The notes: a model not told the origin generated them from the letters alone. A stretch of DNA of 63,981 nt, filler included, from Caldilineae bacterium (GCA_037446815.1; 6 parts of 6 records of this genome joined end to end with filler, not necessarily neighbours in it); one strand, 5' to 3'; shown: positions 11,197 to 45,102, counted from the first letter of the whole stretch. Program-made: numbers and translations.

Positions 11197-11265
11197 CATT
11201 CGGTTCCATGTTGTGTTGGTGAAACGCCTGGGCACTCTCCTCATGTGTCGTTGCGAGCGAAGCGA
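11197..11265. mobile_element. MITE end (terminal inverted repeat plus REP), truncated by scaffold end
   Basis: CATTCGGTTCCATGTTGTGTTGGTGAAACGC...GTCGTTGCGAGCGAAGCGA matches the right end of the 30738-30885 element. Confidence 0.6.
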
Positions 11266-11365
11266 NNNNNNNNNNNNNNNNNNNNNNNNNNNNNNNNNNN
11301 NNNNNNNNNTTAATTAATTAANNNNNNNNNNNNNNNNNNNNNNNNNNNNNNNNNNNNNNNNNNNN
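11266..11365. other. artificial contig linker
   Basis: N-run/TTAATTAATTAA/N-run. Confidence 0.98.
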
Positions 11366-11399
11366 TCATGCAGTTTGTGCTTTCAGGTAAGCAAGAACT

Positions 11400-11464
11400 C
11401 ACCGCAAAGACACAGAGGGCGCAGAGTTTAGACTATTCTCAGCGTTCTCTGTATCTCCGCGGTG
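11400..11464. repeat. palindromic intergenic element
   Basis: CACCGCAAAGACACAGAG pairs with CTCTGTATCTCCGCGGTG. Confidence 0.55.
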
Positions 11465-11567
11465 AGCAAAGCGGCCGCAAGATCGACCAAAACGCAAACG
11501 TGCAGACATCGCGCTGCATCTCGCCGCCGAGACCGTGGCGGCGCAACCTTGCCCAGGAGGTTCACCG

Positions 11568-12293
11568 TTGTTCCCCAACCCATCCAACGCCTGGCGTGAG
11601 ATTCTGGAGCGCATCTTTGAGGGATTCCAGGGCCAGGAGAACGTTACGCCGGAGTGGCTTGTCAATCCCGAGACGGGCCGCCGCCTGAAGTTGGATCGCT
11701 ACTATCCCGAAGCCGGCATCGCGTTTCGCTTCATCGGCAGCACGGGCAAACGGAAAGCGCCGGTCTCGGAGCAGGAACTGGCCGAGGAGGCGCGCCGCGA
11801 TGCCATCCGCGATAAGTTGTGCCAACAGGCCGGCGTCCACCTGGTTACCATTGACCTATACGAGGGCGAGCCGCCCAAGGTGCTGGAGGAGATTCGCACG
11901 GCGCTCAGTCGCGCGGCGCGGCAACTGGCCCAGGGCGACCGCCCCCAGCGCGTCAAGACCGACCTGACGCAGCGCCTGGCGCGGGCGCGGCAGGCGTGCG
12001 ATCGCCTTGCGCCGCGCGTGCGCTCCTACGATGACCTGACGCTCTACGCCCAACTGTGGGAGGATCGGCAGTACATGCGACGGGACGAGCCGACCACGAG
12101 CGCGCCGCCCGCGCCGGTGAAAAACCCGTTTGCGGCGGGCATGCGCGTGGAGCACGAGCGATTCGGGACGGGCCGCGTGCTGGACGTGCGCGAGGATTCG
12201 GCGGGCAGCACGGTGAAGGTGCAGTTTGACGACGGCGCCGAGCGGACATTCTTGCTGCACCTGGTCGTGGACAAGATGAAGCCCCGCAAGTGA
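11568..12293 (+). CDS. Vsr/DUF559-like restriction-fold domain fused to a C-terminal PcrA/UvrD-type Tudor domain
   Basis: WLVNPETGRRLKLDRYYPEAGIAF...RDAIRDKLC...GVHLVTI; C-terminal GMRVEHERFGTGRV...VQFDDG; TTG after AGGAGG. Confidence 0.65.
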   Translation: MFPNPSNAWREILERIFEGFQGQENVTPEWLVNPETGRRLKLDRYYPEAGIAFRFIGSTGKRKAPVSEQELAEEARRDAIRDKLCQQAGVHLVTIDLYEGEPPKVLEEIRTALSRAARQLAQGDRPQRVKTDLTQRLARARQACDRLAPRVRSYDDLTLYAQLWEDRQYMRRDEPTTSAPPAPVKNPFAAGMRVEHERFGTGRVLDVREDSAGSTVKVQFDDGAERTFLLHLVVDKMKPRK

Positions 12294-12313
12294 GGGAGCG
12301 GGCCAGGAGCGTT

Positions 12314-14860
12314 ATGAGCCTCAAGGGCGTCGCGGCGTTGCTGGAGGAACTGCAACACGCGCCGGAATTCGCGCGGAACGTTACGGCGTGGAGACGGCAG
12401 GAGGTGTCTCCCGCGCGCCTGCGCCCATTCCCTGCCGACGCCCACGCGGATTTGGTCGCCGCGCTCCGATCCAGGGAGATTGACGCCCTGTACACGCACC
12501 AGGAGGCGGCGTGGCGGGCGGCCAAGGAAGGCCGGCATGTGGCCGTTGTTACCCCCACGGCGTCGGGCAAGACGCTATGCTACAACCTGCCGGTTCTGGA
12601 TGCCTTGCTGCGCGACCCCCGCGCTCGCGCGCTGTACCTGTTCCCCACCAAGGCGCTGTCGCAGGATCAACTGGCGGAACTGCGGGATTTGGCGTCGCGG
12701 GTATCGGCGGGCATCGCCCCGTCGGTCTACGATGGCGACACGCCCGCCAGCGCCAGGACAACCATACGCCGCACGGCGCGCCTTGTCATCACCAACCCCG
12801 ACATGCTCCACCAGGGCATTTTGCCCCACCACACCAACTGGCTGAGTCTCTTCCAGAACCTGCGTTTCGTCGTCCTGGACGAGATTCACACCTACCGCGG
12901 CGTCTTCGGGAGCCACGTCGCCAACGTGTTGCGGCGGCTGAAGCGGGTGTGCGCCTTCTACGGGGCGTCGCCCCAATTCATCTGCTGCTCCGCCACCATC
13001 GGCAACCCGCTGGAACTGGCGCGGAAACTGGTGGAGGAGGACGTCACCCTGGTGGACGATGACGGCTCCCCGAAGGGGGAGAAGCACCTGGTGTTCTACA
13101 ACCCGCCGCTGTTGGACGCTGCGACGGGCCTGCGCCGAGGCGCGCTGCTGGAGGCGCTGTCGCTGGCGGCGCGCGCGGTGGAACTGGACGTGCAGACCAT
13201 CGCCTTCGCCCGCTCGCGCCAGTCGGCGGAGGTGCTGCTGACGTACCTGCGGGACACGCTCCGCAAGCGCAACCTCAACGCCGACGCCGTCCATGGCTAT
13301 CGCGGCGGGTATCTCCCCACGGAGCGGCGGCAGATAGAGAAGGCGCTGCGAGAGGGCGCGGCGCGGGCCGTCGTGTCCACCAACGCCCTGGAACTGGGCA
13401 TTGACATCGGCAATCTGGACGCCTGCATTATGGCGGGCTATCCGGGCACCATTGCCAGCACCTGGCAACAGGCGGGGCGCGCCGGGCGGCGGAGCGGCAC
13501 GTCGGTGGCCGTGCTCGTCGCCAGCGCCGACCCGCTGGATCAGTACATCGTGCGCCACCCCGACTACTTCTTCGGCCGCTCGCCCGAACACGCGCTGATT
13601 CACCCCGACAACCCGCGCATCCTGGAGAGCCACGTGCGGTGCGCCGCGTTTGAACTCCCCTTCCGCGACGGCGAGATGCTGGGAGCCGCGGCGGCCACGC
13701 CGGACATCCTCGCGCGCCTGGAACAGGACGGCATCCTTCGCCACGCCGCGGGGACGTGGTACTGGATGAGCGAGTCGTACCCGGCGGATGGCCTGTCGCT
13801 GCGCGTCGCCGATGCCGACGCCTTCACGATAGAGTGCCCGGATGACGAGGGGCGGCCGCGGGCCATCGGAGTCCTGGATCGCGCGTCGGCGCCCAAGTTC
13901 CTGTATCCAGACGCCATCTACATGCACGAGGGGCGGCAGTACCTGGTGGAAAGCGTGCAATGGGACGAGGGGCGCGCCTCCGTGCGGCCCGTGCAGGCGG
14001 ACTACTACACCGACGCCCTGGGCACGAGCGATGTGGCCGTCCTGCGCGTGGCCACGGAGGACGCCTCGGCGGCGCGCGCGTGGGGCGATGTGCGCGTTAC
14101 CCGTCGCGTTACCGGCTACCGCAAGGTCAAGTTGTACACCCACGAGACGCTGGGCTGGGGCGACGTTGTCTCGCCCGACCAGGTCATGGACACCACCGCC
14201 TACTGGCTGACCGTGCCCGACACCGTGGTGGATGCGCTGCGGGCAGCGGGCGCGTGGGATGTGGCCCCCATCGCCGACTACGGCCCCAACTGGGAGGCCC
14301 AGCGCGAACTCGCCCGCCAGCGCGACGGCTACCGCTGCCGATTGTGCGGCGCGCCCGAGAAGCCAGGCCGCCAGCACGACGTTCACCATCTCGTCCCCTT
14401 CCGCGAGTTCGGCTACGTGCCAGGCCAGAACGACCGCTACCTTCAGGCCAACGAGTTGGGGAATCTCATCACCGTTTGCCACAACTGCCACACCCGAATT
14501 GAGACCTCCAAGGCGGCCGAGAGCGGCCTACACGGGCTGGCCCACGTCCTCGTACACCTGGCCCCCCTGTTCCTCATGGCGTCGCCGCAGGATTTGGGCG
14601 TGAGCGCGTCGGTGCAGGCGCCGGGCACGCGCAGGCCCACAATTTACCTGTACGATGAGTTCCCGGGGGGCGTGGGGTTCGCCGAGCGGCTGTACGAGTT
14701 GCACCGCGACCTGCTGCGCGCGGCGGAGGAACTCATCGTCGGTTGCCCGTGCGCGGACGGCTGCCCGTCGTGCGTGGGGCCGGTGGACGACCCCGACGCC
14801 CAGACGAAGGCGCACACGCTCCTGCTGGTGCGGGAGATGCTGCGGCTGGGCGCGAGTTGA
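12314..14860 (+). CDS. DEAH-box helicase of the MrfA/YprA/Hrq1/SftH family with DUF1998 and an inserted HNH domain
   Basis: PTASGKT, FPTKAL, DEIH, SAT, TNALELGIDIG, QQAGRAGR, CPCADGCPSC; HNH motif at about 14291-14503. Confidence 0.9.
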   Translation: MSLKGVAALLEELQHAPEFARNVTAWRRQEVSPARLRPFPADAHADLVAALRSREIDALYTHQEAAWRAAKEGRHVAVVTPTASGKTLCYNLPVLDALLRDPRARALYLFPTKALSQDQLAELRDLASRVSAGIAPSVYDGDTPASARTTIRRTARLVITNPDMLHQGILPHHTNWLSLFQNLRFVVLDEIHTYRGVFGSHVANVLRRLKRVCAFYGASPQFICCSATIGNPLELARKLVEEDVTLVDDDGSPKGEKHLVFYNPPLLDAATGLRRGALLEALSLAARAVELDVQTIAFARSRQSAEVLLTYLRDTLRKRNLNADAVHGYRGGYLPTERRQIEKALREGAARAVVSTNALELGIDIGNLDACIMAGYPGTIASTWQQAGRAGRRSGTSVAVLVASADPLDQYIVRHPDYFFGRSPEHALIHPDNPRILESHVRCAAFELPFRDGEMLGAAAATPDILARLEQDGILRHAAGTWYWMSESYPADGLSLRVADADAFTIECPDDEGRPRAIGVLDRASAPKFLYPDAIYMHEGRQYLVESVQWDEGRASVRPVQADYYTDALGTSDVAVLRVATEDASAARAWGDVRVTRRVTGYRKVKLYTHETLGWGDVVSPDQVMDTTAYWLTVPDTVVDALRAAGAWDVAPIADYGPNWEAQRELARQRDGYRCRLCGAPEKPGRQHDVHHLVPFREFGYVPGQNDRYLQANELGNLITVCHNCHTRIETSKAAESGLHGLAHVLVHLAPLFLMASPQDLGVSASVQAPGTRRPTIYLYDEFPGGVGFAERLYELHRDLLRAAEELIVGCPCADGCPSCVGPVDDPDAQTKAHTLLLVREMLRLGAS

Positions 14861-14885
14861 ACAAACCGCCCTCTCGGAGTACAAT
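14857..14885 (+). promoter_or_regulatory. sigma70 promoter
   Basis: TTGAAC-N17-TACAAT. Confidence 0.5.
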
Positions 14886-14909
14886 AGCGGCGGGCCAAGA
14901 GGAGCGGAA

Positions 14910-15719
14910 TTGCCAACGCCGATTACCCATCTCGCTATCGCGCAGCGCATCCTGGGCGCTCGCCCCGAACTCGCACCCCAGGGCGATGAGGATGCCCTTG
15001 GGGCCTTCCTGCTCGGCAGCACGCTGGCGGATGTCCGCGTCGTAACGGGCGAGCCGCGCGCCGCCACGCATTTCCTTCGCCTGCCCCCGCAGCGCGGCGA
15101 TTCGGGCATTCGCGCCATGCTGGGAGCGCACCCGAGCCTCGCCGACCCGAACGGCGCTGACCCGTGCGCCCGCCTGATGGTGGCGGGATACCTGGCCCAC
15201 CTGCTGGCCGACGAAATCTGGCTTGTCCGCGTGTACTGGCCCTACTTCAAACAGGCGGCGGCCCGCCACGATATGGAAAGGCTTCTGTGGCACGACCTGC
15301 TGCGCTCGGTGGTGGATCAGCAGGACCGCGCCGCCGTTCCCCGCAGTTTTCGCCGTGTACTGGAGTCGGCCCGCTGTCCGAACCCGTTTCCGTTCATCTC
15401 ACGGGAGGCGCTGGATGCCTGGCGGGAGTTGCTCCTGCGCGAGTTGGAAGCGCCCGACTCATCGCCCACCTTCGCGCATTTTGCGTCGCGCTACCGGTTG
15501 CCGACGGAAGAGTTCGTGGCGCTGCTTCGCTCGCCGGACTACATGGCGCGCGTGCAGGGGCTGGTGCCCGACGGGACCGCGGCCCGATACCGCGAAGAGG
15601 CCGCGAGGATGGGCGGGGCGCTGGTGGGCGCCTACCTGGATGGACGGGTGGGAGAGTTTCCGCTCCCGCTGCTAGACCCGGAAAATCCCGAAGCGTATGC
15701 CATAACGGAGGAGGCGTGA
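14910..15719 (+). CDS. zinc-dependent phospholipase C family protein
   Basis: [28 protein letters not shown] motifs; TTG after GAGGAG. Confidence 0.7.
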
Positions 15720-16696
15720 TGAGGGTTCTCGTTACCGGCGGCGCGGGCTACATCGGCAGCGTCGTCGCGGAGGAATTGCTGAAAGCGGGCGAAGAGGTCG
15801 TCGTCGTGGATAACCTGGCGCAGGGGCATCGCGCCGCCGTGCCGCCCGACGCCGAGTTTGAGGAAGGCGACCTGCGCGACCGCGCGTTCCTGGACCGCGT
15901 GTTCGCCGTCTACAGGCCCGACGCCGTGATGCACTTCGCGGCCAACAGCCTGGTGGGCGAGTCAATGGCCGAGCCGATGCGCTACTTCCGCAACAACGTG
16001 GGCGGCGGCATCGTCTTGCTTGACGCGATGATGGCGCACGGCGTCGGCAGATTCATCCTCTCGTCCACGGCGAACCTGTTTGCCGCGCCTCGGCGCATCC
16101 CCATCGCCGAGGATGAGCCCATCGTGCCGGGAAGCCCCTACGGCGAGACGAAGCACATCCTGGAGCGGATGCTGGCCTGGCTGGACACGACGCGCGGGCT
16201 TCGGTATGCCGCGCTGCGCTACTTCAACGCCGCGGGCGCTACCGATGAGCGCGGCGAGGATCACCGCCCCGAGACCCACCTGATTCCCATTGTCCTGCAG
16301 GTGGCGCTGGGCAAGCGCGACCACGTGCAGGTCTACGGCGCCGACTACCCGACGCGCGACGGCACCTGCGTGCGCGACTACATCCACGTGGTGGACCTGG
16401 CCCAGGCGCACATCCTGGCATTGCGGGCGCTGGACCGGGGCAGTTGCGTGTACAATCTGGGCAACGGGCGCGGGTTCACCGTGCTGGAGGTCATAGAGAC
16501 GGCGCGGCGGGTAACCGGCCACCCGATTCCGGCGGTCATCGGCCCTCGCCGGCCCGGCGATCCCGCAGAACTGGTGGCCGCGTCGGACAGAATCGCGCGG
16601 GAACTGGGCTGGAAGCCGCGCTTCCCGGATTTGGAGGCCATCATCCGCTCGGCATGGGAGTGGCATCGCCGACATCCGGATGGGTATGGGGACTGA
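15719..16696 (+). CDS. galE: UDP-glucose 4-epimerase
   Basis: [31 protein letters not shown]. Confidence 0.93.
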
Positions 16697-16717
16697 GCAT
16701 CGCGGGGTGAGCGCAGG

Positions 16718-17815
16718 ATGAAAGTCGCCATCAATGCCTGGTTTGCGGACCAACCCGCCACGGGCAGCGGACAGTACACCGCCCGCCTGCTCGTGGCCTT
16801 GCGCGCCGCCGCGCCGGAATGGGAATTCGTCGCCGTGTCGCCCTCAGCCCCCTCGCTTGCCCGGCGCGTGCTGGGCGAGAACCTGTATAAGGTCGGGTTT
16901 GAGCAGTGGGGGTTTCCCCGCGCGGCGCGACGTGTGGGCGCGGATGTGGCGCACGTGCCGTACTGGGGCGGCCCGCTGCGCTGTGGCGTTCCGGTGGTGG
17001 TTACGATTCATGATTTGATTCCGCTCCTGCTGCCCGCGTATCGCGGCGATTGGCGGGTGCAGGCGTACATGCGGCTGGTGGCCGCTTCTGCGCGCCGCGC
17101 CGCCGTGGTGCTGACCGACTCGGAGGCGTCGCGCCGCGATATTCTGGAACACCTGCGGCTGGCCCCCGACCGGGTGCGAACGGTGTACCTTGCCGCGGAC
17201 GAGGCCTACCGCCCCCAGCTGCCCGATGCGGTGGACGCCGTTCGGCGGCGGTTGGGGTTGCCCCCGCGCTACGTCCTGTACTTCGGCGGGTTTGACGTGC
17301 GCAAGAACCTGCGGGCGGTGTTCGCCGCGTTTGCCGAGGCCGCGTCGCACGTGCCGGATGTGGGGTTGGTGGTCGCCGGTCGGCTCCCCGCGCGGGACAC
17401 GGCGTTTACTCCTGACCCGCGCCGCCTGGCCGATGAGGCGGGCGTCGCCGACCGGACGGTCTTCGTCGGCTGGGTGGATGAGGCCGACAAGCCCGCACTG
17501 TACGCGGGGGCCGAGGCGTTTCTGTTCCCGTCGCGGTACGAGGGGTTCGGCCTGCCGCCGCTGGAGGCCATGGCCTGCGGGACGCCGGTCATCGCCAGCC
17601 GCGCGGCCTCGCTGCCCGAAATCGTCGGCGACGGCGGCCTGCTGTACGATGCCGACGACGTGGCGGGGATGGCCGCGGGCCTTGCGGCCGTGCTCACCGA
17701 TGCGACAAGGCGCGCCGCCCTCGCGGAGAAGGCGTTGGCCCAGGCGAGACGGTTCTCCTGGGCGTGGACCGCCCAAGAGACGCTGCGCGCTTACGAAACT
17801 GCGCTGGGGAGGTGA
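16718..17815 (+). CDS. GT4 glycosyltransferase
   Basis: TIHDLIP, RKN, EGFGLPPLEAMACG. Confidence 0.9.
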   Translation: MKVAINAWFADQPATGSGQYTARLLVALRAAAPEWEFVAVSPSAPSLARRVLGENLYKVGFEQWGFPRAARRVGADVAHVPYWGGPLRCGVPVVVTIHDLIPLLLPAYRGDWRVQAYMRLVAASARRAAVVLTDSEASRRDILEHLRLAPDRVRTVYLAADEAYRPQLPDAVDAVRRRLGLPPRYVLYFGGFDVRKNLRAVFAAFAEAASHVPDVGLVVAGRLPARDTAFTPDPRRLADEAGVADRTVFVGWVDEADKPALYAGAEAFLFPSRYEGFGLPPLEAMACGTPVIASRAASLPEIVGDGGLLYDADDVAGMAAGLAAVLTDATRRAALAEKALAQARRFSWAWTAQETLRAYETALGR

Positions 17816-17819
17816 ATCC

Positions 17820-18521
17820 GTGCGCACACGCACCCCTGCTGCCCAAGCCATCCTGTTCGCCCTCGCCTTGCTTGCCATCGCATCCGCGTGCGGGGCAAGG
17901 CCCACGCCCACGCCGTCGCCCACGCCCACCGCGCCGGCCACGGCGACGCCAACCCCCGTGCCGCCGACACCCACGCCTTTTCGCACCCGAAGTCCCCTCA
18001 TGACGCCCGCGCCCGGGTTCACGCCCGCGCCCGTGCAATGCCAGTCCACGCCGCAGTGGGGACTGGGCGATGTGTGGAACCTGGTAAAGGACTCGGTGGG
18101 GTGTCCGCTGGGGCCGCAGGTGGCGTTCCCGGGGCAGGCGTGTTCGTTCCAGTCCGGCCTGATGATCTGGCGGGGTGACTTGCGGGTCCTGTACGTGCTG
18201 TACTACGCGGGCGAGCCGCGGCTTGAGGTCTACGCCGACACCTATGCGCCCGGCGAGGCCACGCCGATTCCGCTCCCCACGCCCACGAGGGCGCTGGGCC
18301 TGTTGGTATCGGAGCCGCCCGGCGCCTTCGGGAAACTCTGGCTGGAGGTGGGCGGCGTGCGCGAGCGATTGGGCTGGTGCGTGAGCGCCGATGCGTCCCA
18401 GGCCTGCCCCATCCGCGCGTTTGAGGGCATCGCGCAGGACTGCGAGCGTGGGACGCTCCTGTGGGACCGAGAGGTTGCCTTCGCCTTGTTCTTTGCGGAT
18501 ATGCGGTGGGAGATGTATTGA
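17820..18521 (+). CDS. hypothetical lipoprotein with Pro/Thr linker and Cys-containing domain
   Basis: Signal ...ASAC, PT repeats, GDVW...VGCP and FGKLW...LGW pseudo-repeats; GGAGGTGA RBS. Confidence 0.7.
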   Translation: MRTRTPAAQAILFALALLAIASACGARPTPTPSPTPTAPATATPTPVPPTPTPFRTRSPLMTPAPGFTPAPVQCQSTPQWGLGDVWNLVKDSVGCPLGPQVAFPGQACSFQSGLMIWRGDLRVLYVLYYAGEPRLEVYADTYAPGEATPIPLPTPTRALGLLVSEPPGAFGKLWLEVGGVRERLGWCVSADASQACPIRAFEGIAQDCERGTLLWDREVAFALFFADMRWEMY

Positions 18522-18542
18522 TTCACCCCGTTCGTTCGGAAG

Positions 18543-18570
18543 TTGACGGCGGCGCGTGTTTGCGTATACT
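18543..18570 (+). promoter_or_regulatory. sigma70 promoter upstream of the DUF4258 gene
   Basis: TTGACG-N16-TATACT. Confidence 0.6.
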
Positions 18571-18696
18571 TGCACGGAGAAGCCACAGGGGCGCTCCGAC
18601 AATCGGGCTGATGCCCTGCAAGTGGCCGATTACCCCCGAGTGGCGCGGGGCAGTGTGTGCTGCACGCTCCACCACGCAGGAGAGAAAAACAAGGAG

Positions 18697-19104
18697 GTCT
18701 GCAAACAGGGGCTGGCGGTCTACAGCGAAAGGACTGAATCTTGCGCACGAAACCAGAATATACAGCACATGCGTTGGTTCGTCTGGCTCAGCGTAACCTG
18801 TCCAAGGATGACTTGGGCTACGTTATGATGCACGGCCGGCGCACTCACAATGCAGGCGCGGTGGCCTACTTCCTGGGCAGAAGGGACATACCCAAAGAAG
18901 ACCTCGGGAAGGACAGTCGCCGTCGTCTGGAGGGGACTACCGTTATTCTGGACAATCGTGAAGAGGAGGTGCTAACGGTATACCGCAACAAGAATGCTCT
19001 CCGCAAATTCCGACGCAGGACGAAGTACAATCGCAAGAAAGCGGCATAGGTTGACCCCTCGGTAAAGTCGGTCATCCGCCATCCGCCAGCCCCTGTTTGC
19101 AGAC
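18697..19104. repeat. 22-bp perfect inverted repeats bounding a single gene
   Basis: GTCTGCAAACAGGGGCTGGCGG (18697-18718) and its reverse complement (19083-19104). Confidence 0.9.
18741..19049 (+). CDS. DUF4258-family small basic protein (putative RNase toxin)
   Basis: YTAHALVRLAQRNL...G...VLTVYR; lower GC than flanks; TTG after GAAAGGA. Confidence 0.7.
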   Translation: MRTKPEYTAHALVRLAQRNLSKDDLGYVMMHGRRTHNAGAVAYFLGRRDIPKEDLGKDSRRRLEGTTVILDNREEEVLTVYRNKNALRKFRRRTKYNRKKAA

Positions 19105-20466: not shown

Positions 20467-20497
20467 GCGAACCCTCCGCGCGGATGCGCCACGTCTC

Positions 20498-22215: not shown

Positions 22216-22322
22216 GGCGCTCCTCCTTGCCTCGTTTGTTGGGATTATAGCACAAACTGTGCCAGTTGAGGCTATTCACGATGTGCAAAGACAGCAGACT
22301 GCACTTGTAGCCGCGAATGGGG

Positions 22323-22498
22323 AACGTGCGACGCACCTCACAGGTAAGCCGCACGAAGACACGCCCCCTCGCCCGCGTCAGCGGGAGAGGGCTGGGGTGA
22401 GGGGCGAGATTCCTCGCGGCTTCGCCGCTCGGAATGACACTAATGCCCCCTCGCCCGCGTCAGCAGGAGAGGGCTGGGGTGAGGGGCGAGATTCCTCG
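22323..22498. repeat. REP-like mosaic
   Basis: Two CCCTCGCCCG...GAGAGGGCTGGGGTGAGGGGCGAGATTCCTCG units and GAATGAC. Confidence 0.8.
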
Positions 22499-22598: not shown

Positions 22599-22903
22599 AT
22601 TGCGAGCGAAGCGAAGCAATCGCACGCCCCGGGGATTGCTTCGGGCGCTCTGCCCCCTCGCAATGACAGCTACCCGCAGACGCTGGAACCGAATGCGGGG
22701 CGCCATCGCGTAGGGGCGACCGATCGGTCGCCCCTACTCTCCCCAATCCCCGCAATCCGTGCCATCCGTGGATGCACCCCAACCCTGTTCGCGTGGATTC
22801 GCGTTATTGACGGTTGCACTCCTCCGAAGTTGCCTCGTGTCGTGCGGCATTGTGCGCGACGCCAAGCCGCGTGAACTGCACCAACACTTTTTGGAACCGA
22901 ATG
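22599..22903. repeat. MITE ends (22599-22695, 22880-22903) plus REP modules
   Basis: GGAACCGAATG terminal repeats; GTAGGGGCGACCGATCGGTCGCCCCTAC; ATCCGTGCCATCCGTG. Confidence 0.7.
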
Positions 22904-22999
22904 CAACACCCCGCAGATTCGCCAAAACCCCCGTCTTGCGTATAATCGCGTCTCGTGCATGGCACAAGTTTACGGAAATGAGGTTTTCTGATATACCCC

Positions 23000-23647
23000 A
23001 TGGGTGAACGGGTATCACTGCTTGAATTGCTGGACGACCTGCGCGATGAGCGCATAAGCGACGGGGACATCCCCGCGGTCCTCCTCTGCTTTGCCGACAA
23101 TTTCTTGCTGGAGGCCGATCGGGACATAGAGGATTTGGTGCTGCATCCCTCGCCGGAGGTGCGGGCTACTGCCATTGAGGTGCTCGCCATACGGTGGCGC
23201 ATCGCCGACTACCGGCCGCTGTGCGAGTACGTCATGCGCTACGACGTGAGCGCCCACGTGCGGGCCGTGGCGGCGCGAGGGCTTGGCGCGATTCTGGCCC
23301 GCACCCGCGACAAGGGCGCCCTGCGCCAATTGCTGGAAACGCTGCGGGATACCGGCGAAGATCGCATTGTGCGGTACGCCGCCTACATCGCGGCGCTGGA
23401 AGTGGTCGGGGCTGTGCCCATCGGCGGCGTGAAGGAGCACTTCAACCTTCGGCGCGACGTGGATTGGAAACTCGTCAACAGCCTGCTGGCGGAAAGCGGC
23501 GAGGTGCTGCGCTGCCTGCGGTGCGGCGCGCCCCTCATCCGCCCGGGCGATGGCCCCGCCTGGTGTCTGGACTGCACGGTGGAAGTGATGGAACTGAGCC
23601 GCGCCACCGCCGATAACGGGCGCAGCACGGTGCTGGGGCGCGACTAG
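23000..23647 (+). CDS. HEAT-repeat protein with C-terminal zinc ribbon
   Basis: EVRATAIEVL, HVRAVAARGL, IVRYAAYIAA repeats; CLRC...CLDC. Confidence 0.7.
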   Translation: MGERVSLLELLDDLRDERISDGDIPAVLLCFADNFLLEADRDIEDLVLHPSPEVRATAIEVLAIRWRIADYRPLCEYVMRYDVSAHVRAVAARGLGAILARTRDKGALRQLLETLRDTGEDRIVRYAAYIAALEVVGAVPIGGVKEHFNLRRDVDWKLVNSLLAESGEVLRCLRCGAPLIRPGDGPAWCLDCTVEVMELSRATADNGRSTVLGRD

Positions 23648-27143: not shown

Positions 27144-27228
27144 GCGCAGCCGCGAAGAATCTCGTAGAGCAGATTGCCAATCTGCTCTACTTTTCCCCAT
27201 CTGCGCAAGCCGCGCCATTCGTGGATGT
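27144..27228. repeat. REP-like mosaic
   Basis: GTAGAGCAGATTGCCAATCTGCTCTAC; similar (inverted) to 56010-56090 and 54088-54170. Confidence 0.7.
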
Positions 27229-29367: not shown

Positions 29368-30006
29368 CTACCTCAATGTCTGAAGTTGTCGTTCCACCTC
29401 GGCGCGAATCGCGGGGTCGTCGCTGAGTTCCAGCACCTTCTGGAACGCCTCGCGGGCCTCCTGCGCCCTGCCCTGGAGCGCGTATACGGAACCCATGCCC
29501 AGGTAGGCCACAGCCAGGTTGGGGTCAAACTGGCGGGCCGCAAGAAACTCGCCCAGCGCCTCGTTCAGGAGATTCTGCTGGGCGTAGGCGGCCCCCAGGT
29601 TGTAGTGGAACACGGCGTCTCCCGGCTCCAGCACCAGCGCCTTGCGGAACTCCTGCGCGGCCTCGTCAAAGCGCCCCTGCTGGTAGTACACCCCGCCCAG
29701 GTTGGAGTGGGCATCGGCGTCATCGGGGTTCAGGCGGATGGCCTCGCGGAACTCCGCGGCGGCGTTCTCCCAATCCGCAAGGGCCGCCAAGGCGCGCCCC
29801 CGCTGGAAATGGGCCGCCGCGTCGTTGGGCGTGGCCGCGACGACGGTTCCCAACAAGCTGGCCGCGCGCGTGTAATCGCCCGCATCGTAGGCTTGCTGCG
29901 CCTCTTGCCGCGCGGCGGGCACGTCCACAGAGGGCGCGCCGCCCCCGCAGGCCACCAGCGCCGCCGCCGCGCATATGCAGATCACGCCGAGCCGCACACG
30001 GTACAT
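29368..30006 (-). CDS. TPR-repeat lipoprotein
   Basis: Lipobox LVAC; tandem TPR repeats. Confidence 0.85.
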   Translation of the reverse strand: MYRVRLGVICICAAAALVACGGGAPSVDVPAARQEAQQAYDAGDYTRAASLLGTVVAATPNDAAAHFQRGRALAALADWENAAAEFREAIRLNPDDADAHSNLGGVYYQQGRFDEAAQEFRKALVLEPGDAVFHYNLGAAYAQQNLLNEALGEFLAARQFDPNLAVAYLGMGSVYALQGRAQEAREAFQKVLELSDDPAIRAEVERQLQTLR

Positions 30007-30656
30007 CAGTCGCCGTTCTCCGACTTGGGCCGAAGCAGCACCACCTGCGTCTCCTCGGGCAGGCTGCTGGCCGAAACCTTCAGCATGTCCTGCTCCTCCG
30101 CCGATGCGACGCCCAATTCTTTTAGGAACTTGCTGACCGGATCCAGTTTCATGGCGAGCCCGCTCAACCGGTAGTGCATGGGCACCACGATGCTGGGTTC
30201 CAGCAGGCTCACCACCTCGGTGGCCTGGGACGCCTTGAGTGAGGCCCCGCCTCCCACCGGCACGAGGAGCACGTTGATGTCGCCGATGGCCTCCACCTGG
30301 CTCTGGCTTGGGATGTGTCCCAAATCTCCCAGGTGGCAGACGCGCAGCCCGTCCATCTCAAATACAAAGATGGTGTTCTTGCCGTACTCGCGGCCGTTGC
30401 GCGTGTCGTGGTACGAAGAGATGCCGGTGATGAAGACGCCGCTGACCTCGTACTCGCCCGGCCCGTCTATGACGAAGGGGTTGCCCTTGACGGCCTTGAC
30501 GTTGGAATGCCCCGGGTGCGCATGGCTTACGGTAACGATGTCGCCTTTCAGGCCCGCAGGCGACAGGCCGATGCTCTTGTCAAACGGGTCGGTGATGATG
30601 GTCGCCGTGCGATCCTTGATGCGAAAGCAGGCGTGCCCGTACCAGAGAATGTCCAT
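30006..30656 (-). CDS. MBL-fold metallo-hydrolase
   Basis: GHACF, SHAHPGH, GPGEYE, HLGDLG, PMHY. Confidence 0.88.
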   Translation of the reverse strand: MDILWYGHACFRIKDRTATIITDPFDKSIGLSPAGLKGDIVTVSHAHPGHSNVKAVKGNPFVIDGPGEYEVSGVFITGISSYHDTRNGREYGKNTIFVFEMDGLRVCHLGDLGHIPSQSQVEAIGDINVLLVPVGGGASLKASQATEVVSLLEPSIVVPMHYRLSGLAMKLDPVSKFLKELGVASAEEQDMLKVSASSLPEETQVVLLRPKSENGD

Positions 30657-30692
30657 AAACCGCAATGCCTCCAGGATATGCGTTACGGGCAC

Positions 30693-30721
30693 ATTATACC
30701 GTCAAGGGGGCATGTTGACAA
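30693..30721 (-). promoter_or_regulatory. sigma70 promoter
   Basis: TTGTCA-N17-TATAAT on the minus strand. Confidence 0.6.
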
Positions 30722-30737
30722 TCGCGGGCAGCCCACG

Positions 30738-30885
30738 GATTCAGTTCCAAAGTCTGTTGGTTTGTCATTGCGAGGGCGCGGAGCGCCCGAAGCAATCTCT
30801 GGGGCGTGAGGTTGCTTCGCTTCGCTCGCAACGACACACAAGGAGAGTGTCCATGCGTTTCACCAACACAAAGTGAAACCGACTC
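30738..30885. mobile_element. complete 148-bp MITE with internal REP palindrome
   Basis: Imperfect 24-bp TIRs GATTCAGTTCCAAAGTCTGTTGGT / GAGTCGGTTTCACTTTGTGTTGGT; flanks CAGCCCACG and CAGCCCACC; partial copies elsewhere. Confidence 0.7.
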
Positions 30886-30899
30886 CAGCCCACCCCACG

Positions 30900-30997
30900 G
30901 ATTCAGTTCCGAAGTCTGTGGTATCCGACATCCGCGCCATCCGTGGATGCGCTGCGGCGCCTGTCATTCCGAGGCGCGCGGCGCCGAGGAATCTCGC
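30900..30997. repeat. extra MITE end plus REP modules
   Basis: GATTCAGTTCCGAAGTCTGTGG; GTCATTCCGAGG...GGAATCTC. Confidence 0.6.
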
Positions 30998-31037
30998 CGA
31001 CCGACACGAGATGAAACGGAGTAGCCCCGTCCCCGCG

Positions 31038-35141: not shown

Positions 35142-35146
35142 AACCG

Positions 35147-35461
35147 GGGCTGGGGTGAGGGGCGAGATTCCTCGCCGCTTCGCCGCTCGGAATGACNNNN
35201 NNNNNNNNNNNNNNNNNNNNNNNNNNNNNNNNNNNNNNNNNNNNNNNNNNNNNNNNNNNNNNNNNNNNNNNNNNNNNNNNNNNNNNNNNNNNNNNNGGGC
35301 TGGGGTGAGGGGCGAGATTCCTCGCCGCTTCGCCGCTCGGAATGACAGTTTGGCAACCGCGAAGGAACGCGAATCCACGCGATACAGAACGTGCGACGCA
35401 CCTCGGAGGTGCGTCGCACGTTGTCCCTTCGCCGCTCGGAATGACGGTTTGGCAACCGCGT
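35147..35461. repeat. REP-like mosaic spanning a scaffold gap
   Basis: 50-bp duplicate either side of the N gap; AACGTGCGACGCACCTCGGAGGTGCGTCGCACGTT; GCTCGGAATGAC x3. Confidence 0.8.
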
Positions 35462-35487
35462 TTCTCCGCAAGGATGGCGCCCCCCTT

Positions 35488-36039: not shown

Positions 36040-36389
36040 TTGGCCCCGTGCGGCGGGTGCGGGATAACGCAAATGAAGCGCAGAATCTCGCCGCCATCGT
36101 TGACGAACTGGTGAGTCTCCCCGCCCGGGACGAAGACGACGTACCCTTGCTCAAAGGGCAGGTTGCCGGCGTCGCTCTTGACATAGCCCCTGCCCGACAG
36201 GATGAACACTTCGTGCTCAAATCCGTGGGCGTGGAACGGCGACGCCTTGCCCGGCGGGACTTCAAAGACGCGCATGGCGAAATTGGGCGCGCCGTCGGCC
36301 TCGCCGATGACCCAGCGGACGGTGATGCCCGGGGCCTCGTGCACCGGCTCCGCGGGCGTTGCGGTGTAGGGTTGAACCTTGATGCTCAT
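36036..36389 (-). CDS. cupin domain protein
   Basis: HAHGFEHE...G...PGGETH. Confidence 0.88.
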   Translation of the reverse strand: MSIKVQPYTATPAEPVHEAPGITVRWVIGEADGAPNFAMRVFEVPPGKASPFHAHGFEHEVFILSGRGYVKSDAGNLPFEQGYVVFVPGGETHQFVNDGGEILRFICVIPHPPHGAK

Positions 36390-37516: not shown

Positions 37517-38166
37517 CGCTCCGAAAGGTAGCCCTGGGCAGCAAGCCAGGGGATAACGGGGGTCAGGTCGGGTTGCTCCAGCACCAGCGACGCGGCCTGC
37601 CGAACGGTCTCGTGATTGGGGCACACGGCGATGCTGACGCCAACGCGCCGGAACATGTCGGCGTCCGAGCGCGTGTCCCCCAGCGCCAACGCCTCCGAGG
37701 GCGCGACGCCGAATTCCGCCAGCAGCGCGTCCACGATAGCCCCCTTGCCGCCCTCGGGGACGCCCACGCGGGTATCGCCGTTGATGATGCCATCCGTGGC
37801 GTACACGTAGTTGCAGAAAACGCGGTCAAAGCCGAGGTCTTCGGCAACCATCTCGGCGTGAATCTGGATGCCGGTGCTCACCAGCGCCAGGCGGACGCCG
37901 TGCTGCTTGAGCGTCCGCACCGTCTCCACCGCGCCCGGAAGGTAGGGGTTCTCGCGGAATAGCGCGCGAATGGTGGCAACCGGCATGCCTTTCCACAGGG
38001 CGGCGTCCAGGCGCAGCCACTCCTCATACGAGATTGCGCCCGCGAAGCCGTCGGCGAAGAAGGCTTGGCTAGCCTCCAGCGTCCCGAGTCGGGAATGCAG
38101 ATACACATAGGGGTCGCGGGCTTGCTTGAGCGTGCCGTCCAGGTCAAAGATGGCCAGTCGCAGCAT
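37513..38166 (-). CDS. HAD phosphatase (phosphoserine phosphatase-like)
   Basis: FDLDGTL, VSTG, K, GDTRSD. Confidence 0.85.
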   Translation of the reverse strand: MLRLAIFDLDGTLKQARDPYVYLHSRLGTLEASQAFFADGFAGAISYEEWLRLDAALWKGMPVATIRALFRENPYLPGAVETVRTLKQHGVRLALVSTGIQIHAEMVAEDLGFDRVFCNYVYATDGIINGDTRVGVPEGGKGAIVDALLAEFGVAPSEALALGDTRSDADMFRRVGVSIAVCPNHETVRQAASLVLEQPDLTPVIPWLAAQGYLSER

Positions 38167-38190
38167 ACCCACCCCCGCGGCAGGTGCGGC

Positions 38191-38991
38191 CTATCCCTTG
38201 GCCTGGCCCGCGGCGGTCTTCACCCGAAGAACGTCGGCCAGGGAAGCCACAATCCCCGCGACGGCCTGCCGAATCGCCGAATCGCGCGGCAACTGCGCCA
38301 GGGGCCGTCCCAGGGCGTCGTACTCGGCGACGAGCGGGTCCCGCGGCAGGACGCCGATGAGTTGCAACCCGGTCTCCTCCACTGCGCGCTGCAGTTCCAC
38401 AGGGAGCGGGTCAGGGGCCATGTTCAGCACCAGCACCATGCGGTGCACCGTGGTCTCCAGTTCGTGCACGAGTTCCTTCATCCGCTTGGCCGCCGTCAGC
38501 CCTCGCACGCTGGGGTCGCTCACGATGAGCAGCAGGTCCACATCGCGGGTGGTGCGGCGGCTCAAGTGCTCCATCCCCGCCTCGTTGTCAATGAAGACGT
38601 AGTCGTACCCGCCCGCGATGCGGTCTACGATGATGCGCAGCATGTTGTTGGCGGCGCAATAGCAGCCCGGCCCCTCGGGGCGCCCCATGGCGAGGAGGTC
38701 AACGCCGTCGGCCTCCACCAGGCACTGGTTGACCTGGTAGTCCAGGTAGTCCTGCTTGCTGGTGCCCGGCGGGAACGATCCCGCCTTGACCTGATCCAGC
38801 GCGTCCTCGCGGATGTCCCCCACGGTGCCGTCCAGCGGGAGGCCCAGCGCCTGGTTCAGGTTGGAACTGGGGTCGGCGTCAATCGCCAGGATGGAGCCCC
38901 ACTTCTCGTCTATAGCCTGCTGGATGAGCAGGGCCGTGAGGGTTGTCTTGCCCGTGCCGCCCTTGCCCGCAACCGCGACTGTGATGGTCAT
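38191..38991 (-). CDS. cooC: CooC/AcsF nickel-insertion ATPase
   Basis: GKGGTGKT, DADP, GPGCYC, DNEAGMEHLSR. Confidence 0.88.
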   Translation of the reverse strand: MTITVAVAGKGGTGKTTLTALLIQQAIDEKWGSILAIDADPSSNLNQALGLPLDGTVGDIREDALDQVKAGSFPPGTSKQDYLDYQVNQCLVEADGVDLLAMGRPEGPGCYCAANNMLRIIVDRIAGGYDYVFIDNEAGMEHLSRRTTRDVDLLLIVSDPSVRGLTAAKRMKELVHELETTVHRMVLVLNMAPDPLPVELQRAVEETGLQLIGVLPRDPLVAEYDALGRPLAQLPRDSAIRQAVAGIVASLADVLRVKTAAGQAKG

Positions 38992-39056
38992 GATTCCTCT
39001 CCAATGGCTTCGTGCGGTCTCTCGGCGCAATGCCGATGGCCGCCTGTACAGTCGCT

Positions 39057-39085
39057 ATTCTACTCGGTCGCACAGGGGGTGTCAA
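39057..39085 (-). promoter_or_regulatory. sigma70 promoter of the cooC operon
   Basis: TTGACA-N17-TAGAAT on the minus strand. Confidence 0.7.
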
Positions 39086-39100
39086 TGATGTACATCACAC

Positions 39101-39560
39101 GATTCGGTTCCAAAGTCTGTTGGTACTTGTCATTGCGAGGGCGCGAGCGGGAATACCACACTTAGCGCGGCGGCTTTAGCCCCGCGCGACCATGGCACCC
39201 AACGGTCATTCTGAGCGGCGGAGCACCGAAGAATCTCGCGCCCGCACCAACACCTCTGGCCTCTCCCCACACCCATCCGTGCCATCCGTGCTATCCGTGG
39301 TGTACGGGCGACCGGCCGGTCGCCCGTATATGCGCGGCGCCGCACTGGGGGCCAACGTGCGACGCACTTCGGAAGTGCGTCGCACGTTCCCCATTCGCGC
39401 GATGCGCGGTTGCCGAACCGTCATTCTGAGGCGCGGAGCGCCGAAGAATCTCCCGCCCCTATCCGCGCTATCCGTGCCATCCGTGGATATAGCAAGGCCC
39501 TATTCGCGTAGATTCGTGTGATTCGTGGATGACGCAGGACAACGTGCAACGCTCGGAGGC
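39101..39560. repeat. MITE left end plus large REP mosaic
   Basis: GATTCGGTTCCAAAGTCTGTTGGT followed by several distinct palindromic modules. Confidence 0.8.
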
Positions 39561-39603
39561 ATTCTTAAATCTAGCGTTGCGCCAAATTTAAGACGAAGCG
39601 CGC

Positions 39604-39632
39604 TTGACTTTAGGCGCCGAAAGGGTTATCCT
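39604..39632 (+). promoter_or_regulatory. sigma70 promoter of the kinase pair
   Basis: TTGACT-N17-TATCCT. Confidence 0.55.
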
Positions 39633-39667
39633 ACAGATGACTCTATTCCCACCTGGAGAGGCTTCTC

Positions 39668-40312
39668 ATGAATCGTCATCCCTACGTCGCCATTGAAGGC
39701 CCTATCGGCGTGGGCAAAACCACGCTGGCCCGACTCCTGCAGCCTGAACTGGGCGCGTCGCTCCTGTTGGAGGTATTTGAGGAAAACCCGTTTCTCAAAG
39801 ACTTCTACCGCGACCGCGAGCGCTACGCCTTCCAGACGCAGATTTTCTTCCTGCTGAGCCGCTACCATCAGCAGCACAAGGCAGTGCCCAAGGCGCTGGA
39901 GAAGGGGCCGCTCATCAGCGACTACACCTTCGCCAAGGACCGCATCTTCGCGCACCTGAACTTGCGCAACGAGGAACTGGCCCTGTACGAGCAACTCCAC
40001 GCCGCCATGGCCGAGAAGATTCCCGTCCCCACGCTGGTCATCTACCTGCGCGCGTCCCTGGATGTCCTGATGGAACGCATCGCGCTGCGCGACCGTCCCT
40101 ACGAGCGCAACATGGACCGCGACTACATCCGCGAACTCAGCGAGGCCTACGAGGAGTTCTTCGCGCACTACAACCAGACCCCGGTCCTGACGCTGGACAC
40201 GGACAACTTGAACTACGTGCGCAACTCCGACGACTTCACCCTGGTGCTGGAGCGCGTTCGTAGCGCCCTGCGCCATGTGCCATATCAACAGCCGCTCCTT
40301 GAGGTCCCGTAG
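39668..40312 (+). CDS. deoxynucleoside kinase
   Basis: EGPIGVGKTT, NPFLKDFY, RIALRDRPYE. Confidence 0.9.
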   Translation: MNRHPYVAIEGPIGVGKTTLARLLQPELGASLLLEVFEENPFLKDFYRDRERYAFQTQIFFLLSRYHQQHKAVPKALEKGPLISDYTFAKDRIFAHLNLRNEELALYEQLHAAMAEKIPVPTLVIYLRASLDVLMERIALRDRPYERNMDRDYIRELSEAYEEFFAHYNQTPVLTLDTDNLNYVRNSDDFTLVLERVRSALRHVPYQQPLLEVP

Positions 40313-40375
40313 AGGGCCGATGGGGCGCGCAGCGGCCAACACAGGTTCACCAATCTTACGCGAGGCAGAGCATAC

Positions 40376-41011
40376 ATGGGCAAGTTTATCGCAGTGGCGG
40401 GGAATGTCGGGGTCGGCAAGTCCACCCTGACCCATCTGTTGAGCGAGCGGCTGGGCTGGGAGCCTTTCTACGAGGCAGTGGACGACAACCCCTACCTCGC
40501 CGACTTTTACAGCGACATGCCGCGGTGGAGTTTCCACTCGCAGATCTTCTTCCTATCGCGAAGGCTGCGCCACCATCGGGAAATCCTCAGCCACCCCAAC
40601 ACGGTCATCCAGGACCGCAGCGTGTACGAGGATGCCGAGATCTTCGCGCGCAACCTGTACCTGCAGGGGCACATGCAACCCCGCGACTACCGGTGCTATC
40701 GGGAACTGTACGAGGTGCTGACGCAGTTTCTGCCGCCGCCGGACCTCGTGATCTACCTGCGCGCCTCGGTTCCCACGCTCCAGCACCGCATCGCCCTGCG
40801 CGGGCGCGACTTTGAGCGGCAAATCCCCGATGAGTACCTCGCGCAATTGAACACCCTCTACGAGGAGTGGATTGAGGGATTCACGCTGTGCCCCGTGCTC
40901 ACCGTGCCCGCGGACCGTCTGGACTTCGTCAAGCACAACTCGCACCTTGAGTTGATCTGCGAGAAAATCCTTGACAAACTCCAGGGGAAGGAAGTCGTCG
41001 TCTTTGACTAG
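40376..41011 (+). CDS. deoxynucleoside kinase
   Basis: GNVGVGKST, QDRSVYED, RIALRGRDFE. Confidence 0.9.
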   Translation: MGKFIAVAGNVGVGKSTLTHLLSERLGWEPFYEAVDDNPYLADFYSDMPRWSFHSQIFFLSRRLRHHREILSHPNTVIQDRSVYEDAEIFARNLYLQGHMQPRDYRCYRELYEVLTQFLPPPDLVIYLRASVPTLQHRIALRGRDFERQIPDEYLAQLNTLYEEWIEGFTLCPVLTVPADRLDFVKHNSHLELICEKILDKLQGKEVVVFD

Positions 41012-41066
41012 CGCGCGTCAAAGATGACGGACGGGCGATCTATGCGGAAGGGCCTCGGCTGCTTAC

Positions 41067-41235
41067 CCTCGCCCGCCGGGAGAGGGCTAGGGTGAGGGCC
41101 ACGCACCCTCGCCCGCNNNNNNNNNNNNNNNNNNNNNNNNNNNNNNNNNNNNNNNNNNNNNNNNNNNNNNNNNNNNNNNNNNNNNNNNNNNNNNNNNNNN
41201 NNNNNNNNNNNNNNNNGGGTGAGGGCCACGCACCG
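41067..41235. repeat. REP-like repeats around a scaffold gap
   Basis: CCCTCGCCCGCCGGGAGAGGGCTAGGGTGAGGG. Confidence 0.7.
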
Positions 41236-41272
41236 ACCCGGCCATCCCCCGCGCCTGCTGCCCTCGCGGGCG

Positions 41273-41701
41273 CTACTTGCCGTTGTGGGCCTCCACCCGA
41301 CGCAGGGCCGCCAGGATGAGCACCGCGAAGACCGCGCCCACGATTGCGATGACGTACAGCCCCGCTGCGGCGGCCATGGCGATAGCCGCGACCGCCCACA
41401 GGCCGGCGGCCGTCGTCAGCCCGTGTACATCGGTCTGGCGCTGCAAGATCGTGCCGGCTCCGAGAAAGCCGACGCCGGTTACCACCTGCGCGGCCACGCG
41501 CGCGGGGTCGCTGCCCGGAAAGGCGTAGAGCGAGACCAGCGTAAACATGGCCGACCCCAGCCCAACCATGATGTAGGTGCGGAACCCCGCGGGCCTGCCG
41601 CGTCGTTCCCGCTCCCACCCGACGATTCCTGCCAGCACGATGGCCAGCAGCAAGCGGACGAGAGGCTCAACCGTTGCAAAAACTTCTTGCGCGTCGGGCA
41701 T
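41273..41701 (-). CDS. mgtC: MgtC/SapB family membrane protein (short form)
   Basis: GWERE, AGFRT, DPARVAAQVVTGVGFLGAG, GLTTAA. Confidence 0.85.
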   Translation of the reverse strand: MPDAQEVFATVEPLVRLLLAIVLAGIVGWERERRGRPAGFRTYIMVGLGSAMFTLVSLYAFPGSDPARVAAQVVTGVGFLGAGTILQRQTDVHGLTTAAGLWAVAAIAMAAAAGLYVIAIVGAVFAVLILAALRRVEAHNGK

Positions 41702-41713
41702 GACGTCCTCCTG

Positions 41714-41751
41714 AAAAAGCATCGGCAGGGAGCCAACGCCCCCTGCCGATG
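41714..41751 (-). terminator. terminator after ppdK
   Basis: CATCGGCAGGG/CCCTGCCGATG stem plus T5 on the minus strand. Confidence 0.7.
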
Positions 41752-41787
41752 GATTCTGTCTGTGCGATACGGCCGGGCGGCAAAGGC

Positions 41788-44571
<2,784 letters not shown>

Positions 44572-44717
44572 CTCACAAGCCTCCTTCATCTTGTTACAGT
44601 CGCACAAAAGCAGCCGGGGGTGTCCCTCGGCTGCCGGGTTGTGTTCCGTGCGGATTACGCGCCTGTGCCCCAGAGGCGATAGCGCAACAACGATGGCATG
44701 GGACGCACCAACTTGCA

Positions 44718-44746
44718 ATTATACCACCTTTGCCGCGGTTTACCAA
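44718..44746 (-). promoter_or_regulatory. ppdK promoter (extended -10)
   Basis: TTGGTA-N17-TATAAT with TG extension. Confidence 0.55.
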
Positions 44747-44752
44747 AATCGC

Positions 44753-44828
44753 GATTCGGTTCCAAAGTCTGTTGGTATTTGTCATTGCGAGGGCGCGGAG
44801 CGCCCGAAGCAATCCCCGGAGCGTGCGA
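44753..44828. mobile_element. MITE left end, truncated by scaffold end
   Basis: Near-identical to 30738-30800. Confidence 0.7.
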
Positions 44829-44928
44829 NNNNNNNNNNNNNNNNNNNNNNNNNNNNNNNNNNNNNNNNNNNNTTAATTAATTAANNNNNNNNNNNNNNNN
44901 NNNNNNNNNNNNNNNNNNNNNNNNNNNN
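44829..44928. other. artificial contig linker
   Basis: N/TTAATTAATTAA/N. Confidence 0.98.
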
Positions 44929-44983
44929 ATGACACACGGGTAGTGTACGCCTGCGGTTCACCAACACAAGATGAAACCGAATC
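44929..44983. mobile_element. MITE right end at scaffold start
   Basis: CACCAACACAAGATGAAACCGAATC matches 30861-30885. Confidence 0.65.
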
Positions 44984-45102
44984 GAACGCAGGTGCGAATC
45001 TGGCGCGCGAGAACGAATGATGTATAATACCCTCACTGGTGTGCGAACCGCTAGGCGCGAAGTGGCGGTTTGCACGATTCTGCTACAGAGAGGGAGGGTA
45101 TC

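Follow-up and report, generated by a model that had tools for sequence, protein, structure and literature searches.

Classical bacterial miniature inverted-repeat transposable elements (MITEs), such as Correia/NEMIS, RUP, and Nezha, are small noncoding sequences with inverted ends that carry target duplications, occur in many copies, and are mobilized in trans. We know of none that chooses a fixed distance from promoters. Such a choice is described by Guerillot et al. (2014, PMC3942029) for two groups of prokaryotic Mutator-like elements. TnGBS conjugative elements and ISLre2 insertion sequences, of family p-MULT 3, keep to a single orientation and insert 15 to 17 bp upstream of sigmaA promoters, and the ISKra4 group, family p-MULT 4, is represented there by thirteen insertion sequences in which the promoter may lie on either side, a property that accompanies near-perfect inverted repeats. 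Taken together, these elements insert 13 to 17 bp upstream of sigmaA promoters, generate 8- to 9-bp duplications, and end in repeats of 18 to 39 bp with a terminal C. Here we describe a MITE with a similar target rule in a 63,981-base stretch from a draft genome of a Caldilineae bacterium (GCA_037446815.1; 65% G+C). This stretch, referred to below as the window, is a chain of ~11-kb contigs joined by 100-N gaps, six of which have a TTAATTAATTAA linker.

The ends of the MITE read G-ATTCRGTTYCA-N5-TGTTGG; they are inverted, ~23 bp long, and nearly alike, with a terminal G:C pair. Paired elements in all genomes checked were 69 to 338 bp long and had no coding capacity. The core 11-mer ATTCRGTTYCA, with at most one mismatch, occurs 13 times in the window, compared with a mean of 1.46 in shuffled sequence, and none of 100 shuffles reached 13. 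An earlier reading of the window, made from the sequence alone and called here the original prediction, had proposed that these ends mark a non-autonomous family guided to promoters, and had cited a TnGBS/ISLre2 precedent of insertion about 15 to 16 bp upstream of sigmaA -35 boxes with 8- to 9-bp duplications; the precedent is correct, PMC3942029 giving 15 to 17 bp and 8 to 9 bp. From the results given below, the element is a MITE that is probably moved in trans by a DDE transposase selecting sigma-70-type promoters.

Copies were found in other genomes at several levels of search. A scan of public genomes with the end pattern returned at least 68 loci, mostly chance matches; BLAST identified real copies in L011 and L040 and a short version in L049, the others being chance. 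The scan led to two Anaerolineae drafts with real copies, and a whole-genome pattern search gave 17 matches in G001 and 35 in G003, with none for the reversed-pattern control. Of 150 sampled genomes of the class, 14 matched, six of these at least three times (G001, G003, G004, G063, G075, and G095), and the reversed pattern matched once in all 150.

To measure the distance between ends and promoters, we used 112 distinct ends with 70-nt outer flanks, taken from the window (10) and from G001 (17), G003 (39), G004 (16), G075 (25), G095 (3), and G063 (2). A strict promoter was defined as TTGnnn-N16-18-TAnnnT. An outward-pointing strict promoter with its TTG at flank positions 16 to 19 was present at 38 of the 112 ends, as opposed to 0.085 in shuffled flanks; the TTG began at position 17 in 24 of these and at position 18 in 11. 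The corresponding tip-to-TTG distance was 15 to 16 nt at 35 ends and 14 to 17 nt at 38. Other strict promoters in the 70-nt flanks numbered six elsewhere and one pointing inward. By source, in the order given above, the matches were 3/10, 4/17, 14/39, 8/16, 9/25, 0/3, and 0/2, so the signal is seen in five of the seven genomes. A looser test, requiring at least 8 of the 12 consensus letters, placed 42 ends at offset 17 and 25 at offset 18, with at most 2 at any offset outside 16 to 19. Flank position 1 is C at 92 of the 112 ends, which makes the tip of the element a G; positions 2 to 16 carry no information, and then come TTG at 17 to 19 and an A/T-rich -10 region at 41 to 45. Of 38 paired elements, 9 had the promoter solely at the left end and another 9 solely at the right; a single element had it at both ends, and 19 had it at neither. 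The distance rule is therefore shown by about a third of the ends and half of the elements, in either orientation, and the fixed distance to outward promoters that the original prediction had drawn from a handful of sites is far beyond chance.

Six of the sites in the window bear on the rule, and re-reading confirmed every coordinate and distance that the prediction had given for them. At tip 30738, the end of a complete 149-bp copy (30737 to 30885, plus strand), 16 nt separate the element from TTGTCA (30721 to 30716), which is followed by a 17-nt spacer and TATAAT (30698 to 30693); this promoter (30693 to 30721, minus strand) belongs to the gene for an MBL-fold hydrolase (30006 to 30692). At tip 39101, 15 nt lead to TTGACA (39085 to 39080), a 17-nt spacer, and TAGAAT (39062 to 39057), the promoter (39057 to 39085, minus strand) of a ParA/MinD-like ATPase gene (38191 to 39030); the left end of the copy here (39101 to 39268, plus strand) is intact, and its right end (ACCAACAC..., ~39245 to 39268) is decayed. 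Tip 11197 is likewise 15 nt from TTGACC (11181 to 11176), with a 16-nt spacer and TAGGAT (11159 to 11154) completing a promoter-like sequence on the minus strand (11154 to 11181). The element consists there of a right-type inverted repeat and interior (11197 to 11265, plus strand), truncated by the contig end at the gap of 11266 to 11365.

Two further ends were measured to the -10 box. Tip 22903, part of a solitary or degenerate inverted-repeat end (22880 to 22904, minus strand) beside the promoter of a HEAT-repeat protein gene (23000 to 23647), is 37 nt from the TATAAT at 22941; a weak -35 box, TTCGCC, and a 17-nt spacer precede it (22918 to 22946, plus strand). Tip 44983 belongs to a right-type end at a contig start (44929 to 44983, minus strand) and is 39 nt from a plus-strand TATAAT (45023 to 45028), behind which lies a gene for a sugar-binding protein (45070 to 46371). 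The sixth, tip 44753, is the left-type end of a copy truncated by the contig end (44753 to 44828, plus strand) and faces TTGGTA (44746 to 44741), a 17-nt spacer, and TATAAT, the minus-strand promoter (44718 to 44746) of a pyruvate phosphate dikinase gene (41788 to 44718). A gene on the appropriate strand starts within ~30 to 60 nt at five of the six sites, the genes being those for the HEAT-repeat protein, the MBL-fold hydrolase, the ParA/MinD-like ATPase, pyruvate phosphate dikinase, and the sugar-binding protein. The prediction had named the closer spacing at 44753 and the ends near 22695 and 30900 as exceptions, and this also stands: the ends at ~22694 to 22696 and at 30900 have no promoter, and other repeats adjoin both. 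The first of them bounds a left-type end in reverse orientation (22599 to 22696, minus strand) that is truncated by the contig start and has other repeats stacked in its outer flank.

Direct repeats and empty sites show that the element is inserted. Complete copies are flanked by direct repeats of 8 bp, or 9 bp in one case (for example, at L107, L122, L073, and L095, and at 30729/30886 in the window, where CAGCCCAC occupies 30729 to 30736 on the plus strand and 30886 to 30893 on the other side of the copy). Empty sites were found in related genomes at three loci, and at the window's own 30737 to 30885 locus. At L096, a copy in G003 has no counterpart in G004 or G001; both empty alleles already hold TTGATT-17-TATAGT, whose -35 box lies 7 nt downstream of the target 8-mer. 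The promoter was therefore not brought by the element, and the cut was placed relative to the promoter. L094, between two divergent promoters, is empty in G001 and holds different repeat stacks in G095 and G003. At L071, G003 and G004 share a copy that is lacking at this position in G095 and G001, where the target ACTCCTCC is single. The 8-bp duplication was seen in this comparison and in the one at L096.

The locus in the window records two insertions at one promoter. Beyond the 149-bp copy lies a second complete copy with different inner hairpins (30900 to 31023, plus strand). In a 1.56-kb contig of a related strain (runs X3 and X4; ~96% alike), window position 30756 is joined to 30930, and this contig holds only the second, older copy, located directly where the younger copy begins in the window. 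Since the younger copy is missing and the older one is kept in the related strain, the same promoter was hit twice. The younger copy landed in the 8 bp beside the older tip, at the canonical distance, and displaced the older copy outward from the promoter. Sequencing depth over the element (runs X1 to X4), which we tried as a measure of copy number, sums many contigs and was uninformative. The non-autonomous, promoter-guided family of the original prediction is borne out by these observations: the element is mobile, duplicates 8 bp, inserts at a fixed distance from promoters that predate it, does so in both orientations, and can hit one promoter repeatedly.

We propose the following model. A DDE transposase encoded elsewhere would mobilize the MITE and choose the target by reading a sigma-70-type promoter. 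An 8-bp staggered cut 7 nt upstream of the -35 box would leave the inserted tip 15 to 16 nt from the TTG, with the promoter pointing outward, and either end of the MITE would be able to face the promoter. If a promoter were hit again, the new copy would enter between the promoter and the older copy, and stacks would build up. The promoter is probably recognized via a sigma factor or RNA polymerase and not via the flanking sequence, and the site upstream of a promoter may serve as a low-cost "safe haven" for the element. The enzyme itself would be a Mutator-like prokaryotic transposase similar to those of ISKra4. In its behavior the element is of the ISKra4/TnGBS type, although we assign it to neither family.

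The transposase is not in the window, as had been predicted: none of 69 large open reading frames (ORFs), hand-picked from the 154 of at least 120 amino acids, matched a transposase family at an E value of 1e-10 or lower. In the class, the ISKra4 family (NF033572) was detected in 93 of 400 genomes at an E value of 1e-20 or lower, and in 38 over the curated cutoff (two unpublished genomes included). Several findings weigh against the model, and the first group concerns this enzyme. The transposase with matching ends that the original prediction led one to expect was not among the 56 loci with ISKra4-type genes, none of which had a MITE end at up to 3 mismatches, and ends common to the MITE and a p-MULT-encoding insertion sequence were accordingly not found. 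NF033572 was also not found in the drafts G001, G003, G004, and G075, which are the richest in copies; as these bins are incomplete, this is no proof of absence. In a tip-anchored alignment of five window ends with twelve ISKra4 ends, evaluated against 1,000 shuffles and uncorrected for multiple tests, two of the five beat most shuffles (17 and 37 of 1,000 reached their scores), and the likeness of the remaining three was no better than that of shuffles. The second group concerns the target. The promoters are consensus predictions; 74 of the 112 ends and 19 of the 38 paired elements are without a strict promoter at the fixed distance; the end at 44753 is 6 nt from its -35 box rather than 15; and the L071 target lies within an operon and is a ribosome-binding site instead of a promoter. 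Finally, the site at 11181 runs into the 3' end of a NUDIX gene (10340 to 11053) that converges on it, and no gene is evidently under its control. The target rule may respond to promoter-like DNA regardless of whether a gene is driven by it (site 11154 to 11181).

Candidates for an autonomous or parent element were considered and set aside. At L017 and L069 in G002, a MITE-type end accompanies an open frame, but the termini of that insertion sequence lie 140 nt further in and differ from the MITE-type end, which is therefore a neighbor and not a terminus. Uniform ends at contig edges in G075, which could have belonged to a long parent element, all proved to be a ~330-bp MITE, and the near identity of the G075 copies indicates recent activity. 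L118 contains a transporter gene instead of a transposase. A 2-kb piece between two MITE-type ends in G004 (C66:14050-16039; L298/L301) has no counterpart at that position in G003 (L098); it encodes a 580-amino-acid secreted protein and not a transposase, and the difference could be due to gene capture or to loss by deletion between copies.

A different promoter-associated element came to light through the single MITE-type end of G002, a complete genome, which contains at least six diverged copies of a two-gene insertion sequence (L099:822-3600 and L099:4100-7000 in G002; further loci of the family are L102 to L105, L127 to L206, and L326 to L355). The first gene encodes a protein of 210 to 240 amino acids that comprises regions 2 and 4 of sigma-70; among 64 aligned proteins of this kind, Pfam region 2 was present in 64 and region 4 in 63. 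Their closest solved relatives are the primary sigma factors SigA, HrdB, and RpoS (E of ~1e-30), and the match extends to the C-terminal end, with no region 3 and no region 1.1. The second gene encodes a cysteine-rich DDE transposase of 560 to 680 amino acids with a weak match to IS1182; 1,235 relatives without a Pfam domain or a name are present in public data, mostly on contigs of 2 to 3.6 kb. At 74 of 77 loci, the transposase ATG lies ~11 nt before the sigma stop codon in the +1 frame, with GGAGG ahead of it, an overlap that indicates two separate, translationally coupled proteins. No sigma-transposase fusion was seen among proteins of 1,011 to 2,885 amino acids, which is weak evidence and does not cover forms of 700 to 1,000; a 903-amino-acid open frame in G190, considered as a fusion, is a transposase with a C-terminal run-on.

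The sigma-encoding element is ~2.8 kb long and has the ends GGGnnTTCGAAGC (80 metagenome loci). On four contigs its right end is followed after 5 to 6 nt by a left end (L165:2433-2439, L185:44-50, L190:3358-3365, and L199:2314-2320), an arrangement that would result from the junction of a circular transposition intermediate or from two copies in tandem. Distinct left (sigma-side) flanks contained a strict promoter with its TTG at positions 14 to 16 in 37 of 43 cases, 31 of them at position 15, and T, T, and G occupied positions 15 to 17 in 38, 42, and 34 of the 43. Only 1 of 44 right flanks had such a promoter (shuffles, 0.17). The element thus keeps to one orientation and to a distance of 14 nt upstream of -35 boxes, an arrangement repeated by two copies on long genome contigs. 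The flanks of near-identical copies are unrelated except for the promoter, which therefore lies outside the element proper. In a diverged subfamily with the ends GGGCTTTCGCAGCG (L102, L104, and L105, in G002), the promoter was 15 to 16 nt from the transposase-side end in all three unmasked copies; L340 does not fit the pattern of this subfamily. We found no paper on a sigma-encoding insertion sequence in literature searches of limited depth.

The sigma-like protein may act as a guide that brings the transposase to promoters, or it could instead serve transcription of the element itself. We entertain, tentatively, the broader idea that the sigma-like protein docks its transposase on promoters and that the MITE of the window is moved by an unseen enzyme using the same trick with its own or the host's sigma factor. 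If true, such docking would be a protein-guided counterpart of RNA-guided transposition. The sigma-encoding insertion sequence offers a direct way to test how a transposase might recognize a promoter, and it is the best lead found on that mechanism.

The resemblance raises the question of whether this IS1182-like family, and not a Mutator-like transposase, mobilizes the MITE. Both sit at a fixed distance upstream of -35 boxes (14 nt for the sigma-encoding family, at 37 of 43 left ends), both occur in the same class (29 of 400 genomes for the sigma-encoding family), the sole MITE-type end of G002 adjoins a sigma-encoding copy, and at L175 a MITE-type end lies 8 nt from the tip of another, in a contig that may be chimeric and that shows no readable promoter or duplication for the MITE. 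The ends argue otherwise, since the likeness of GGGnnTTCGAAGC to the MITE ends is no better than that of shuffles. So does the geometry, since the sigma-encoding family keeps to one orientation (37 of 43 left ends versus 1 of 44 right ends) and the MITE uses both, and so do the duplications, which in the sigma-encoding family, where visible, are 5 bp (2 of 34) and not 8 bp. The family was, moreover, not found in G001, G003, or G004 (G075 lay outside this search). We do not think that the sigma-encoding insertion sequence moves the MITE, and we regard that explanation as unlikely.

A very improbable explanation is that insertion is random and that selection retains copies in harmless spots just upstream of promoters. 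The elements are intergenic, intergenic regions are short here, and half of the paired elements are without a promoter at the fixed distance, all of which would fit. Selection for survival between genes cannot, however, yield single-base precision, and two neighboring offsets account for 35 of the 44 strict promoters in the 70-nt flanks; in the window, two insertions used a single 8-bp target next to a promoter. Least probable of all is that the repeat is immobile and its ends are regulator-binding sites or an upstream promoter element, or, in a variant, that the element carries its own outward promoter: the motif does lie where class I activators and UP elements act (~-50 to -75), but target duplications with clean empty sites mean insertion, the promoter is already in the empty alleles, the 15 nt between the tip and the -35 box are not conserved, and no Rfam family was matched in the window.

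The interior of the MITE consists of interchangeable hairpin modules that are also found alone elsewhere, and in other genomes the same ends enclose different hairpins. The modules GTGCGACGCAC...GTGCGTCGCAC and GTCATTGCGAGG...CCTCGCAATGAC occur both inside the MITE and as standalone units; hairpin modules in the window are at 22309 to 22355, 35387 to 35427, 39349 to 39389, and 54180 to 54215, and also at 22600 to 22668 and 30763 to 30831. A search of the whole window at Rfam gathering scores assigned no part of it to a family. Another short repeat family, CCGTGCCATCCGTGGATGC, is stacked in the same intergenic regions as the MITE (22750 to 22775, 27203 to 27228, 30925 to 30950, 39270 to 39295, and 39465 to 39490). 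A ~41-bp G-rich repeat, GGGAGAGGGCYGGGGTGAGGG, is both tandem and dispersed, in some cases at contig ends (41066 to 41114, 56117 to 56289, and 22363 to 22498).

Selection of an insertion site by its promoter is rare among transposons, and the MITE shows this rule in miniature, in many copies, with base-level precision and with stacking on one promoter. In a phylum that is uncultured and has no mapped transcription starts, its copies mark likely promoters at no cost. The element also has a practical consequence for drafts of these genomes. Four gap edges among the 10 gaps in the window (11266, 22598, 44829, and 44928) fall within MITE copies, and the MITE is a cause of assembly breaks upstream of genes.

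In its inverted ends on a short noncoding body, its fixed-length duplication, its presence/absence polymorphism, and its multiple dispersed copies, the element described here is a MITE; compared with the classical bacterial MITEs, its main feature is the target rule. In its distance to the -35 box, duplication length, inverted-repeat length, and terminal C, it agrees with the promoter-targeting Mutator-like elements. TnGBS and ISLre2 resemble it in inserting 15 to 17 bp upstream of the -35 box with the promoter outward and in duplicating 8 to 9 bp, according to PMC3942029. They differ from it in having a single orientation set by unlike repeats, in being autonomous, and in being much larger, and their hosts are Firmicutes, Fusobacteria, and Synergistetes, whereas the MITE is found in Anaerolineae. 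Several of the thirteen ISKra4-group insertion sequences come from the Chloroflexi species Ktedonobacter. That group is known in Chloroflexi and common in this class, and, like the MITE, it inserts 13 to 17 bp upstream of the promoter, has the promoter on either side, makes 8- to 9-bp duplications, and has a terminal C. ISKra4-type copies in the class have 9-bp duplications (L221 and L224), and some have promoters 14 to 17 nt from an end. Unlike these insertion sequences, the MITE has no transposase gene, and the likeness of its ends to theirs is weak. The consulted part of PMC3942029 mentions no MITE form for the ISKra4 group, and literature searches of limited depth returned no paper on a promoter-targeting MITE in Chloroflexi. 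The behavior is already in print for full-size transposons; here it is that of a miniature noncoding element.

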